Assembly: GCA_963702095.1 (NCBI GenBank)
Contig: OY969706.1
Location: 384,001 to 448,000 of the forward strand
DNA length: 64,000 nucleotides
From: Candidatus Bathyarchaeota archaeon
Lineage (GTDB): Archaea > Thermoproteota > Bathyarchaeia > Bathyarchaeales > Bathycorpusculaceae
Direction of reading: 5' to 3'
A program made the position numbers and the translations under genes. Under the pieces are notes generated by a model that saw only the letters and a list, made by a program, of their open reading frames with translations, was not told the DNA's origin and did not search any database. Below are positions 39,825 to 43,663 of the stretch, piece after piece (the first letter of the stretch is position 1; every line of letters begins with the position of its first letter).

Positions 39825-39877
39825 GCAGCGTCCTTTCTAATTGTGTATATAAGCGGGTTTTTACGTTAACGGTAACC

Positions 39878-40558
39878 ATGAGACTTGGCGTGCTATTTTC
39901 AGGCGGCAAAGACTCCACCCTTGCCCTGCACATGGCGGCAGAGAAAGAAACAGTAGCCTGCCTAATCACCGTGGTCTCCGCTAACAAGGAGAGCTACATG
40001 TTCCACACGCCAAACATCGATATGACAGCGTTGCAGGCTGAAGCATTGGGGTTGCCGCTGGTCTCAGTGCCCACTGCCGGGCGGAAGGAGGAGGAACTCG
40101 CCGACCTCGAACAAGCCATCAAAGAAGCCAAACGCCGCTACCAAATCGAAGGCGTCGTCACAGGCGCAGTCGAATCCGTCTATCAGGCAACGCGGGTTCA
40201 ACGCATCTGCAGCCATCTCGACCTCTGGCAATTCAACCCGCTATGGAAAAAAAACCAGAAGGCGCTTCTCGAAACACTCCTTGCAAAACGTTTCCATGTA
40301 GTCATTTCGGGGGTTTTCGCTTATCCGCTCGACCAAAGCTGGCTCGGCAAACCCCTTGACGCAGACATGATTGCGCGACTGGTGGAGTTGCAGGGCAAAT
40401 ATGGCATCAGTCCCTCGGGGGAAGGCGGCGAAATCGAGACGACGGTGATGGATGCGCCGATGTTCAAGAAAAAAATCGAGACAACCGACTCCACGGCTCA
40501 GTGGCTTAGGGACTCTGGCACCTACATCATTAAGCATGCGAGGCTGGCACCCAAATGA
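39878..40558 (+). CDS. dph6: Diphthine--ammonia ligase
   Basis: PP-loop SGGKDS, SYMFH, GAVESVYQ, PLW and GEGGEIET motifs. Confidence 0.92.
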   Translation: MRLGVLFSGGKDSTLALHMAAEKETVACLITVVSANKESYMFHTPNIDMTALQAEALGLPLVSVPTAGRKEEELADLEQAIKEAKRRYQIEGVVTGAVESVYQATRVQRICSHLDLWQFNPLWKKNQKALLETLLAKRFHVVISGVFAYPLDQSWLGKPLDADMIARLVELQGKYGISPSGEGGEIETTVMDAPMFKKKIETTDSTAQWLRDSGTYIIKHARLAPK

Positions 40559-41100
40559 TTCTCGTAGTAGACATGAATTGGAAGCCTGATTCATTGGCTT
40601 ACACTGAGTTTGTGTCGCCCATCCTTGCTGTGGTGGAGCCACTTGAGGCATGCACAGTTAAGCATTACTCTGAGGTTGAGCCAGCGGAAATAACCAGTTA
40701 CAGCCACATTATCCTCTCGGGCACCACACTCAAAGACTTCGCTTTCTTAGAAAACCTCCGCCGCTTCAACTGGATAAAAACCTATGACAAACCCGTTCTG
40801 GGCATCTGCGCAGGCATGCAAACCATCCTCCAAATCTACGGCGAACCACTCGCCCCATGCACACAGGTCGGAATGACCGAAATCACAACAACAAAACCCA
40901 ACCCCCTATTCGACGGAGTCTTCCAAGCCTACACGCTGCATAGCTACACCGCCAAACCCGGCGGCGGCATCTTTGAGTTTCTCGCAAAATCCGCACAGTG
41001 CATCCAAGCCATCAAACACAAACAGAAACCCATCTACGGCGTACTCTTCCACCCCGAGGTGCGAAACCAAGAAATCCTAAGGCGCTTTGTTAAAGGTTAA
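40555..41100 (+). CDS. Stand-alone class I glutamine amidotransferase
   Basis: IILSG, PVLGICAGMQ (Cys nucleophile), YGVLFHPE (His-Glu); ATGA overlap with dph6. Confidence 0.9.
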   Translation: MILVVDMNWKPDSLAYTEFVSPILAVVEPLEACTVKHYSEVEPAEITSYSHIILSGTTLKDFAFLENLRRFNWIKTYDKPVLGICAGMQTILQIYGEPLAPCTQVGMTEITTTKPNPLFDGVFQAYTLHSYTAKPGGGIFEFLAKSAQCIQAIKHKQKPIYGVLFHPEVRNQEILRRFVKG

Positions 41101-41236: not shown

Positions 41237-43663
41237 TTGGTTGATAAATTACCAGTAGAAAAATTACGGAATACCTGTGACACTAACATTCTTCATTGTA
41301 CAACCACTAAAGAGTTAACCCCCCTTACAGAAATTATTGGGCAAGATCGCGCGGTCCGAGCCCTCAAATTTGGGTTAGGCATAAAAAACCATGGTTTCAA
41401 CGTGTACGTCGCCGGCTACCCTGGGACCGGTCGCAAAACGGCGGTGAAGAGTTTTGTGGAAGCCCAAGCCAAAATCCAGCCTGTTCCCTCGGATTGGTGC
41501 TACGTCAACAACTTCAGCAACCCCTATGAACCCACCGCTATCCAGTTGGCATCAGGCAGAGGCAAAGAGTTCCGCGATGACATGAAAAACTTTATTGAAA
41601 ACGTCAAAAACACCTTGCCTAAAACGTTTGAAAGCGAAGACTACGTGGCTCGACGCGAAGCTACCCTGCGGGGACTGGAGAGTCAACGCAAAAGCCTAAT
41701 CGACGAACTCAACGCGAAAGCTCAGCAAGAGGGCTTCGTAATTCAAACCACCCCGGTTGGGTTACTTCTTATCCCCGTTTTAGATGGCAAACCGCTAAGC
41801 GAAGAAGAAATGCTTGCGCTTCCCCAAAAAATCAAAGACAAACTAGCTGAGAAACGTGAAAAACTTGAAGTTGAATTCCGCAACGCCATGCGGCAGCTCA
41901 TCAATATGGAACAGCAAATCCATGATACCTTAAAAAAACTCAACAAGGACGTGGCGCTCTACGCCATCGGCACCCAAATCCAGAGTTTAATGGAGAAGTA
42001 CCGCACCAACCTCGAAGTCACCGCTTACCTAAAAGCCGTGGAAAACGATATCCTCGACAACCTCCAGCGTTTCGCCCGTCGAGACGGCCCGCAGCAGGAG
42101 CAGCAGATGCCCTTTGCTTTGCCTTGGATGCGCGGTGAGGAACCCTACAAAAAATATGAGATAAACGTAGTCATAGATAACTCGGAGACCAAAGGTGCGC
42201 CGGTCGTGGTGGAAACCAACCCCACTTACCCTAACCTGCTGGGTAAAACCGAGAAGGAAGCCCAGTTCGGCGCGTTAACCACGGATTTCAGCATGATTCG
42301 GGGCGGCAGCATCCACAAAGCCAACGGCGGATACCTCATCATCCCCGTCGAAGACCTCTTGCGCAACCCCCTCTCCTACGACGGTTTAAAACGCGACATC
42401 AAAGAAGGCAAAATGTCCATTGAAGAACCCGAAGAACGCTACGGCTTCTTAAGCATAAAAACACTCAAACCCAAACCCATACCATTAACAGCCAAAGTCA
42501 TCTTAATCGGCGACCCCAACCTCTACCAAATGATGTTTAGCCTAGACCCCGACTTCCGTGAACTCTTCAAAATCAAAGCTGAATTCGACACCACTATGCC
42601 ACGCAACGACGAAAAAATCCAGTTGTACGCCGCGTTTGTCTGTAGCCTCTGCGAACACGAGGGGCTTAGGCACCTTGACAGCGGCGGCTTAGCTAAACTC
42701 ATCGAGTACAGTTCACGCATAATTGAAGACCAATACAAGCTTTCCACGCAATTCAGCGCCATAGCCGACATCATCCGCGAAGCCAACTACTACGCAGAAC
42801 AGGACAACGCTGAATTCATCACTGCCGTCCACATCAATAAAGCCATTGAAGAGCGAATCTACCGCAGCAAACTCATCCAAGAAAAAATCCAGGAAATGAT
42901 CGCCCGCGGCTTCTTTCTCATTGACACCAAAGAGGCGAAAGTGGGACAAGTCAACGGATTATCGGTCATGGGACTCGGCGACTTCGCGTTTGGCACGCCG
43001 TCACGCGTCACAGCCAGCATCGGGTTGGGCCGTGAAGGCGTCATCGACATTGAACGCGAAGCCAAAATGGGCGGACCCATCCACACCAAAGGCGTCCTCA
43101 TCCTAAGCGGCTACATCAACGACAAATACGCCCGCGACAAGCCACTAAGCCTCAGCGCACGACTCGTATTCGAACAGAGCTACGAGGGCGTGGAAGGCGA
43201 CAGCGCGTCGAGCACTGAACTCTACAGTATCCTCTCTGCACTCGGCGGACTCCCCGTAAGGCAGAACATCGCCGTAACAGGCTCCGTCAACCAGAAGGGT
43301 GAAGTGCAAGCCATCGGCGGCGTCAACGAAAAAATCGAGGGCTTCTACGAAGTTGCCAAAGCCAAAGGCTTAACGGGTGAACAGGGCGTCATGATTCCAG
43401 AAAGCAACGTCCAGAACCTGATGCTCAAAGAAGAAGTGCTCGACGCGGTGAGGGCGGGCAAATTCAGCATTTACTCGGTTAAAAACATCGACGAAGGCAT
43501 CGAAGTCTTAACAGGCGCCAAAGCTGGGCAGCGACGGGCAGACGGCTCATTCGAAGAGGGTACGGTTAACTATCTTGTTGATAAGCAGTTGCGGGATATG
43601 GCGGAGAAACTAAAAGAGTATCCCTCTGTTGAGTTTAAACCGAGAAAGCTAGAGGAACAATAG
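41237..43663 (+). CDS. Lon-family (LonC-like) protease
   Basis: IIGQDRA, degenerate Walker A GYPGTGRKT, ANGGYL, Ser-Lys dyad GDSAS...NEKIEG; no TM insert. Confidence 0.93.
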   Translation: MVDKLPVEKLRNTCDTNILHCTTTKELTPLTEIIGQDRAVRALKFGLGIKNHGFNVYVAGYPGTGRKTAVKSFVEAQAKIQPVPSDWCYVNNFSNPYEPTAIQLASGRGKEFRDDMKNFIENVKNTLPKTFESEDYVARREATLRGLESQRKSLIDELNAKAQQEGFVIQTTPVGLLLIPVLDGKPLSEEEMLALPQKIKDKLAEKREKLEVEFRNAMRQLINMEQQIHDTLKKLNKDVALYAIGTQIQSLMEKYRTNLEVTAYLKAVENDILDNLQRFARRDGPQQEQQMPFALPWMRGEEPYKKYEINVVIDNSETKGAPVVVETNPTYPNLLGKTEKEAQFGALTTDFSMIRGGSIHKANGGYLIIPVEDLLRNPLSYDGLKRDIKEGKMSIEEPEERYGFLSIKTLKPKPIPLTAKVILIGDPNLYQMMFSLDPDFRELFKIKAEFDTTMPRNDEKIQLYAAFVCSLCEHEGLRHLDSGGLAKLIEYSSRIIEDQYKLSTQFSAIADIIREANYYAEQDNAEFITAVHINKAIEERIYRSKLIQEKIQEMIARGFFLIDTKEAKVGQVNGLSVMGLGDFAFGTPSRVTASIGLGREGVIDIEREAKMGGPIHTKGVLILSGYINDKYARDKPLSLSARLVFEQSYEGVEGDSASSTELYSILSALGGLPVRQNIAVTGSVNQKGEVQAIGGVNEKIEGFYEVAKAKGLTGEQGVMIPESNVQNLMLKEEVLDAVRAGKFSIYSVKNIDEGIEVLTGAKAGQRRADGSFEEGTVNYLVDKQLRDMAEKLKEYPSVEFKPRKLEEQ

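Follow-up and report, generated by a model that had tools for sequence, protein, structure and literature searches.

A class-I glutamine amidotransferase gene linked to dph6 in archaea: a probable two-subunit, glutamine-hydrolysing route to diphthamide

Introduction

Where does the last nitrogen of diphthamide come from? This modification of translation elongation factor 2 (EF-2) is, to our knowledge, universal across archaea and eukaryotes, and both the name and the catalogue entry of the last enzyme of its synthesis call it an ammonia ligase; the yeast enzyme, Dph6, has reportedly been assayed with ammonium. The question is raised anew by a pair of genes in a stretch of 64,000 nucleotides from Candidatus Bathyarchaeota archaeon (GenBank assembly GCA_963702095.1, contig OY969706.1, positions 384,001 to 448,000 of the forward strand), hereafter “the window,” in which dph6 overlaps a gene for a class-I glutamine amidotransferase (GATase). 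Who would expect an ammonia ligase to travel with a glutaminase? A first-pass annotation, made from the letters of the window, proposed that the two proteins form a two-subunit amidotransferase, and this proposal is supported by the comparative and modelling evidence presented here. Very probably, dph6 and its neighbor encode a glutamine-hydrolysing diphthine amidotransferase of two subunits, in which the GATase would be the dedicated glutaminase. Archaea that carry such a partner thus probably take the final nitrogen of diphthamide from glutamine and not from free ammonia, while most Dph6 enzymes, having no GATase, presumably use free ammonia.

An overlapping gene pair

The main features of the pair are given below in window coordinates, all on the forward (+) strand.

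39878..40558, + strand: dph6, encoding diphthine-ammonia ligase (diphthamide synthetase), 226 amino acids from an ATG, with a TGA stop at 40556-40558
39899..39916, + strand: PP-loop SGGKDS, Dph6 residues 8-13, read from the sequence and invariant in a 57-sequence alignment
40226..40228, + strand: codon for Trp117 of Dph6, which is predicted to touch GATase residues 60-61
40555..41100, + strand: class-I GATase, the putative glutaminase subunit beside Dph6, 181 amino acids, with its ATG at 40555-40557
40555..40558, + strand: ATGA overlap of the GATase start and the dph6 stop, read from the sequence
40588..40629, + strand: GATase residues 12-25, DSLAYTEFVSPILA, an N-terminal motif specific to the family, through which docking on Dph6 is predicted
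40807..40809, + strand: codon of the catalytic Cys85 within GICAGMQ, from the sequence and the family alignment
41050..41058, + strand: codons of His166-Pro167-Glu168 within FHPE, with Glu168 to Arg170 in the predicted interface

The first-pass annotation had relied on three observations, namely an ATGA overlap between the two genes, an intact Cys-His-Glu triad in the GATase, and the lack of a GMP synthase ATPase subunit (GuaAB) or TrpE nearby. Each of them holds. The overlap follows from the coordinates of the two open reading frames (ORFs), Cys85, His166, and Glu168 are all present, and the only GMP_synt_C and Chorismate_bind matches in the genome lie at G000:2694733 and G000:1945432, respectively, while the window covers G000:384001-448000 (G000 being the genome under study). 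The 4-nucleotide overlap is no matter of chance, since it is retained in 52 of the 61 related loci whose gene ends can be defined.

Linkage to dph6 in Bathyarchaeia and across the Archaea

A full-length GATase orthologue is found in 25 of 36 genomes of the same genus (best E ≤ 1e-30), and in all 25 loci dph6 stands immediately upstream with the same junction. Reading frames are split in four of these loci, which suggests assembly errors, because the downstream gene lon is split as well in two of the four. Outside the family but within the order, 24 genomes yielded no orthologue, only weak cross-matches that mostly fall in frames of GuaA length (about 520 amino acids). When an even sample of the whole class was searched with a profile, the GATase family appeared in 25 of 301 Bathyarchaeia genomes, belonging to 8 of 107 genera and to two families, whereas Dph6 appeared in 250 of the same 301. 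In this class, then, the GATase is an accessory that a minority of genomes carry.

A wider scan, made with one genome per species, kept 80 loci: 53 with near-full-length relatives of the GATase and 27 in which other GATases matched partially. Of the 53 loci, 48 have dph6 directly upstream or fused in frame (fused in L071 and L075); in the 27 loci with other GATases, which serve as an internal control, dph6 is never upstream. The 53 loci are spread over Bathyarchaeia, Halobacteriota, Theionarchaea, Aenigmatarchaeota, Methanomicrobiales, Methanotrichaceae, Methanosarcinales, Thermoplasmata, Thermococci, and the Woese-, Pace-, and Nanoarchaeota, that is, over about ten archaeal lineages, and their flanking genes differ. 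The genus-level and cross-archaea counts are kept separate, some loci coming from the same genomes (there are two pairs of identical Dph6).

A few loci depart from the simple arrangement. At L090 (2531-3004, Nanoarchaeota), a 157-residue ORF of unchecked family lies between dph6 and the GATase gene, and all three genes overlap; at L093, a truncated GATase remnant follows dph6 after 273 nucleotides. At L061 (2447-3004, Aenigmatarchaeota), the GATase gene overlaps an ORF for a hydrophobic protein of 185 residues, not dph6.

Natural fusions of Dph6 and GATase

The two proteins also occur joined in a single chain. A search for longer relatives of Dph6 returned 1168 proteins (E ≤ 1e-10), the best 120 of which were inspected: 117 of these contain PF00117 together with PF01902, in chains of 405-540 amino acids. 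Their sources, as named, are Methanothrix, Micrarchaeota, Aenigmarchaeota, Woesearchaeota, and Nanobdellota. The other three are two AsnB-type fusions (P0234 and P0238) and one protein with an N-terminal extension. In all 11 class-I fusions that were read, the order is Dph6, linker, GATase, the same as the order of the genes here. Domain coordinates confirm three fusions, whose Dph6 halves pass the Dph6 cut-off (277-283 bits). The GATase halves align from end to end with the window's GATase at 28-45% identity with an invariant triad, and they share with it the N-terminal motif D-x-N-x-K-x-DSL-x3-EFV-x-PI.

How common is the family as a whole? Run against 1.84 billion cluster representatives (50% identity), its profile recovers 280 proteins at E ≤ 1e-30, and among the best 150 of these 280, six are fusions of more than 400 amino acids and the others are of stand-alone size. 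Seen from the GATase side, linkage is far from the sporadic pattern that the first-pass annotation had named as telling against its own proposal. The survey of neighborhoods and fusions that it had put forward yields 25 of 25 loci in the genus, 48 of 53 in the family at large, and 117 fusions among the best 120 longer relatives of Dph6.

The protein with the N-terminal extension, P0216, has 461 amino acids and consists of Dph6 preceded by some 230 residues, with no GATase domain. PF28410 is present in every longer Dph6 relative among the best 120; because it also occurs in P0216, it can be assigned to the Dph6 portion rather than to the glutaminase. Two candidates for other kinds of Dph6 fusion, G101 (an open frame of 564 residues with a called ORF of 437) and G095 (341 residues), were rejected, no Pfam domain being found in their N-terminal stretch, which may be open frame upstream of the true start.

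The predicted complex and its interface

The first-pass annotation had also pointed to structure prediction of the complex as a check. Modelled together, Dph6 and the GATase reach an interaction prediction score from aligned errors (ipSAE) of 0.92 in three runs, against 0.00 for the best of three controls. The model has 56 contacts, at least 98% of them common to the runs, and a predicted local distance difference test score (pLDDT) of 95 for the partner (at least 94). In calibration, the ipSAE mark is reached by 58 of 80 solved complexes and by 2 of 110 mismatched pairs, counts that hold roughly here since custom alignments were used. The model supports binding between the two proteins without amounting to a demonstration of it.

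On the GATase, the predicted interface comprises the segment of residues 12-25 and residues 58-61, 103-107, 126, 128, and 168-170, which include the catalytic Glu. Within the N-terminal segment the interface residues are 12-15, 17-18, 21-22, and 25; three positions of the segment, L14, E18, and P22, show conservation of at least 90% across the family. Conservation at this level is concentrated in the interface, with 11 of 22 positions compared to 25 of 159 elsewhere (Fisher p = 0.0007). On Dph6, the predicted interface is made of residues 1, 19-24, 94, 101-112, and 116-126.

An AlphaFold2 model of a natural fusion, P0121, has a pLDDT of 89.5 and a predicted template-modelling (TM) score of 0.88, with a disordered linker at 242-265. 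Its Dph6 domain superposes on the PH1257 and PF0828 structures with TM scores of 0.93-0.95 (38-42% identity). In a fold search with this model, no solved chain covered both domains, matches being to one domain at a time. By sequence, too, the closest solved proteins of the pair are single subunits.

The GATase is neither GuaAA nor TrpG

Could the small protein simply be a misplaced subunit of another synthase? It matches PF00117 with 66.8 bits (gathering cut-off 22.8), and the best family models are those of GMP synthase subunit A (NF001975, 69.5 bits against a cut-off of 198) and the GuaA N-domain (TIGR00888, 63.4 against 172); the TrpG/PabA model TIGR00566 gives 33.2 against 121. GuaAA is the nearest solved relative, whether one compares sequences (E about 1e-22) or folds (TM about 0.8). 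The triad is complete in 55 of 57 aligned family members, the two exceptions being one Cys-to-Asp change (L025) and one C-terminus lost by frameshift.

The genome, assembled as one contig of 2.94 Mb, has eight PF00117 matches. The other seven, all outside the window, are a fused GuaA, TrpG, CarA, PyrG, HisH, PurQ, and an orphan GATase, with CarA, PyrG, HisH, and PurQ named by eye from their translations and not by family search. TrpG directly follows the sole Chorismate_bind (TrpE) gene of the genome (G000:1945432-1946825). The fused GATase-ATPPase GuaA lies at G000:2693366-2695008 with one apparent frameshift: its ORF stops after ...QPFPGLA, and the remainder, including GMP_synt_C, continues in another frame past a CCCGGGCC stretch. 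This break is probably a homopolymer error of the assembly and not the mark of a pseudogene, because other members of the genus have guaA ORFs of 519-528 amino acids. The orphan, a second class-I GATase of 210 amino acids (G000:C1:2365154-2365783; locus L006 1417-2049), falls below every NCBIfam cut-off and follows genes for an aminotransferase and a prephenate dehydrogenase.

In a quick tree, a starred branch (99) parts 69 rows of the family from 32 other GATases, which include the genome's own GuaA N-domain, TrpG, CarA, HisH, and the 210-residue orphan; on the sequences compared, the GATase belongs to a distinct clade. Identification as GuaAA was accordingly rejected, with the cut-offs missed, a fused GuaA present elsewhere, and the tree setting the protein apart from GuaA-type GATases. 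TrpG/PabA was likewise rejected on its score and on the presence of a true TrpG beside TrpE elsewhere. The proposal would have been in difficulty if the GATase had been the only GuaAA or TrpG orthologue of the genome, as the first-pass annotation recognized, and the fused GuaA and the TrpE-TrpG pair remove that concern. As for the check that it suggested, whether a separate guaAA exists elsewhere, the genome has the fused GuaA, which also holds its only GMP_synt_C match.

Dph6 and the diphthamide pathway

The larger protein is a Dph6 by family assignment, with 235.4 bits for PF01902 and 280.6 bits for TIGR03679 (Dph6_archaeal), whose equivalog cut-off is 197.3 bits. SGGKDS (residues 8-13) and GEGGE (181-185) are invariant in all 57 partnered Dph6 aligned, and the nearest solved structures are PH1257 (2d13) and PF0828 (3rjz). 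There are three PF01902 paralogues in the genome, of which only the window's Dph6 passes the Dph6 cut-off, the other two reaching 125 bits. Those two (G000:C1:2542433-2543098 and 2574062-2574937) show weak matches to the PAB0415/TTX_0299 models, and one of them has an insertion of about 40 amino acids after the PP-loop. Dph2 (PF01866, 295.9 bits, G000:2748165) and Dph5 (TIGR00522, 293 bits, G000:1166354) are also encoded. Judged by these family matches, the diphthamide pathway is complete: Dph2, Dph5, and a single Dph6-grade PF01902 protein.

Partner loss and the fate of Trp117

Not every Dph6 keeps company with a GATase, and the partnerless proteins offer a natural comparison. Of these, 25 (5 same-genus proteins and 20 from elsewhere in Bathyarchaeia) were set against 57 partnered Dph6. 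Trp occupies position 117 in 50 of the 57 partnered proteins and in none of the 25 others, which have Lys, Glu, Arg, or a different residue there; counting the genus alone, Trp is present in 21 of 21 partnered and 0 of 5 partnerless proteins. A screen of the genus for positions at least 90% conserved in the 21 partnered proteins and kept in at most one of the five partnerless ones yields only E24, V107, and W117. Two of these three, E24 and W117, are predicted interface residues (Fisher p = 0.03). In the Dph6 tree, the five partnerless proteins of the genus are scattered within the partnered clade, at no fewer than three points.

One locus, L025 (G017:C82), has a GATase with Asp at residue 85 (GVDTGMQ), and its Dph6 groups with those of three genomes without a GATase. 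Because a protein lacking the catalytic Cys is found next to genomes that have lost the gene, this grouping suggests, as far as sequences can tell, a gradual decay of the partnership that is still in progress.

Origin of the two-gene module

The partnered Dph6 of Bathyarchaeia form a starred clade (99); beside it, with support 85, stand Dph6 from Halobacteriota, Methanomicrobiales, and Methanothrix that are themselves partnered or fused. Twenty partnerless Bathyarchaeia Dph6, four of them from the window's own family, form a separate starred clade (97), and identity between the two clades is 41-47%. Displacement of the native Dph6 of Bathyarchaeia by the two-gene module is only a lead, because in an approximately unbiased (AU) test a single clade of all 58 Bathyarchaeia rows is not rejected (log-likelihood difference 24.9, p-AU 0.094), the group having been named after the tree was seen. 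Constraint imposed by a shared partner could also pull partnered Dph6 sequences together in the tree.

Known systems and what the literature holds

The closest parallel is the two-subunit archaeal GMP synthase (GuaAA and GuaAB of M. jannaschii and P. horikoshii; PDB 2lxn, 7d40, 1wl8, 2d7j), which likewise combines a stand-alone class-I triad GATase with a PP-loop ATP pyrophosphatase. In that enzyme, as would be the case here, a substrate oxygen is adenylated before the attack of ammonia, and both fused and split forms exist. However, the acceptor there is xanthosine monophosphate, whereas here it would be a protein side chain (diphthine on EF-2); the synthase is GuaAB there and Dph6 (PF01902) here; and the GATase of this pair has a distinctive N-terminal motif, predicted to dock on Dph6, and a clade of its own.

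Other arrangements of Dph6 are on record. In excerpts of the paper by de Crecy-Lagard et al. (2012; PMC3541065), the diphthamide reaction is said to need NH3, and the AsnB domains found N-terminal to DUF71 in a few archaea, as well as the RidA domains of eukaryotes, are proposed as suppliers of ammonia. The AsnB (GAT-II plus Asn_synthase)-DUF71/Dph6 fusions of Methanohalophilus, Methanosalsum, and Ca. Nanosalinarum resemble the present system in that a glutamine amidotransferase is joined to Dph6. They differ in that the amidotransferase is class II (N-terminal nucleophile, or Ntn, type), N-terminal, and accompanied by a second PP-loop domain, while here a class-I triad GATase is C-terminal or encoded by a separate gene, with no second synthase. 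Which domain the glutaminase of the AsnB fusions feeds is a reviewer's query that can be found printed with that paper. Eukaryotic Dph6 (yeast YLR143W) carries C-terminal RidA/YjgF domains after its Dph6 core, with a possible role in ammonia delivery (PMC3541065, excerpts); the accessory domain is thus RidA there and an unrelated GATase here. Stand-alone archaeal Dph6 (PH1257, 2d13; PF0828, 3rjz/3rk0/3rk1) shares fold and motifs but is without a glutaminase partner.

Neither PF00117 nor GuaA occurs in the main text of PMC3541065, and a 2023 preprint on ATP-PPases (10.1101/2023.10.12.562014) makes no mention of diphthamide. In excerpts of a 2021 review of Haloferax annotation (PMC8305020), the archaeal dph2, dph5, and dph6 assignments are described as awaiting experimental confirmation. 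A full-text literature search, with subscription-only papers outside its scope, turned up no published account of Dph6 paired with a class-I GATase, and on the source of the ammonia it yielded only PMC3541065. The statement in the first-pass annotation that such a two-subunit enzyme was not known to have been described therefore stands for the class-I partner but not for the wider idea, since the AsnB/GAT-II fusions had already prompted, in 2012, the proposal of a Dph6 fed by glutamine (PMC3541065, excerpts). The concept is foreshadowed by these class-II fusions, and a PP-loop amidotransferase with a glutaminase subunit is an already known kind of enzyme, not a categorically new one.

Proposed mechanism

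How would the two proteins work together? The small subunit would hydrolyse glutamine on Cys85, using the triad Cys85-His166-Glu168, while docked on Dph6 by its active-site face and by the N-terminal helix that is specific to its family. The freed ammonia would then pass to the PP-loop site of Dph6, where ATP would adenylate the diphthine carboxylate on EF-2 and the ammonia would convert it to diphthamide, the overall logic being that of the two-subunit archaeal GMP synthase. In this scheme we infer three things: that the GATase is active as a glutaminase, that ammonia is transferred, and that diphthine on EF-2 is the acceptor.

With less assurance, we lean toward a broader view, according to which glutamine-hydrolysing diphthamide synthetase is a widespread and unnamed enzyme form (Dph6 plus a dedicated class-I glutaminase) that would merit an Enzyme Commission (EC) entry 6.3.5.- beside EC 6.3.1.14. 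It would be carried as a mobile two-gene or fused module, would have taken the place of the native, ammonia-dependent Dph6 in the Bathyarchaeia lineage to which the window belongs, and would have been repeatedly stripped to Dph6 alone, with the docking Trp decaying each time.

If the proposal is true, many archaea (Methanothrix, Methanomicrobiales, DPANN, and some Bathyarchaeia) run the diphthamide step as a true glutamine amidotransferase. A GATase family of 280 clusters, labelled so far either “hypothetical” or “GMP synthase subunit A-like,” would gain a function and have its annotations corrected, and the enzyme would add a rare example in which a GATase supplies the nitrogen to amidate a protein side chain. 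The natural series of split, fused, and lost forms would lend itself to the study of how ammonia-channelling partnerships are gained and dissolved, and the proposal can be tested directly with two small soluble proteins.

Weighing the evidence

Several observations weigh against a two-subunit amidotransferase. The GATase is dispensable, being carried by 25 of the 301 Bathyarchaeia genomes while 250 have Dph6, and five same-genus genomes without it hold a stand-alone Dph6 followed by different downstream genes. Two of the 53 family loci (L061 and L079) lack a dph6 gene within 3 kb, and at L078 dph6 is matched in part, at a distance of 2.5 kb. In 18 of 57 family members, Glu replaces the Gln of the G-x-C-x-G-x-Q motif, and the L025 orthologue has Asp for the nucleophile Cys. 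On the Dph6 side, conservation is not enriched in the predicted interface (9 of 24 positions against 64 of 202, p = 0.36). An independent-pairs test of partner loss offers only three pairs on starred branches, too few to lend it power, giving p = 0.25 for W117 (sign test) and p = 0.5 for E24 with a consistent direction, and the partnered Dph6 of Woesearchaeota, Pacearchaeota, and Nanoarchaeota (L081, L084, L085, L092, and L094) have Glu at 117; the association of Trp117 with the partner is thus suggestive and appears bound to lineage. Finally, the complex score expresses the confidence of a model and may borrow from likeness to GMP synthetases, and the support as a whole is comparative and modelled, not biochemical or expression-based.

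What else could the pair be doing? The GATase might bind Dph6 without channelling ammonia to it, either as a regulatory, glutamine-sensing subunit or as a loosely coupled glutaminase that raises ammonia locally. Its dispensability and repeated loss would fit such a role, as would the orthologue without the nucleophile and the frequent Glu in the motif. We nevertheless hold it to be very unlikely: 55 of 57 members retain the whole triad, and residues of the catalytic face (168-170, 126, 128, and 58-61) lie in the predicted interface. A catalytic face turned toward the synthase is the productive orientation in known class-I amidotransferases. The complex might also be real but act on an acceptor other than EF-2 diphthine, for instance a small-molecule carboxylate. 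Partnered Dph6 do form clades apart from the native partnerless clade of Bathyarchaeia (97, starred), at 41-47% identity, and PF01902 is not monofunctional, other subfamilies having been proposed in 2012 for B12 salvage (PMC3541065, excerpts). Against this, the window's Dph6 passes the equivalog cut-off (280.6 against 197.3 bits), as do the fused forms (277-283 bits), and it is the sole such protein in a genome with Dph2 and Dph5, whose pathway would otherwise miss its last enzyme; we regard a different acceptor as very unlikely.

To a reading in which linkage is incidental, with the GATase serving GMP or anthranilate synthesis or another PF01902 paralogue, we give hardly any credence. It is true that gene order is generally kept in the genus, where lon follows in most loci, and that the best family-model matches are to GuaAA. 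Yet adjacency extends across phyla in 48 of 53 loci with differing flanks, 117 of the best 120 longer Dph6 relatives are fusions, and the genome has its own fused GuaA and TrpE-TrpG, while the GATase misses the GuaAA and TrpG cut-offs widely and its family is set apart by the starred branch (99). The fusions and the adjacency across archaea have already largely refuted this explanation. A dedicated glutaminase subunit for Dph6 thus stays the preferred reading of the pair.

Upstream region and neighboring genes

One further feature precedes the pair.

39846..39853, + strand: TATATAAG, a possible archaeal TATA box about 28 nucleotides before the dph6 ATG, from reading of the sequence

We read TATATAAG as a possible TATA box on the strength of the archaeal consensus and spacing, and its position would suggest a leaderless transcript of the two genes. 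Genes neighboring the pair encode a serine hydroxymethyltransferase and a phosphoglycerate-dehydrogenase-like protein with an ACT domain (Pfam), and a 193-residue ORF has weak, sub-threshold Pfam matches. After the dph6-GATase pair, at 41237-43663, comes a gene for a LonB/LonC-like AAA protease of 808 amino acids, which is kept downstream in most same-genus loci and not in other lineages.

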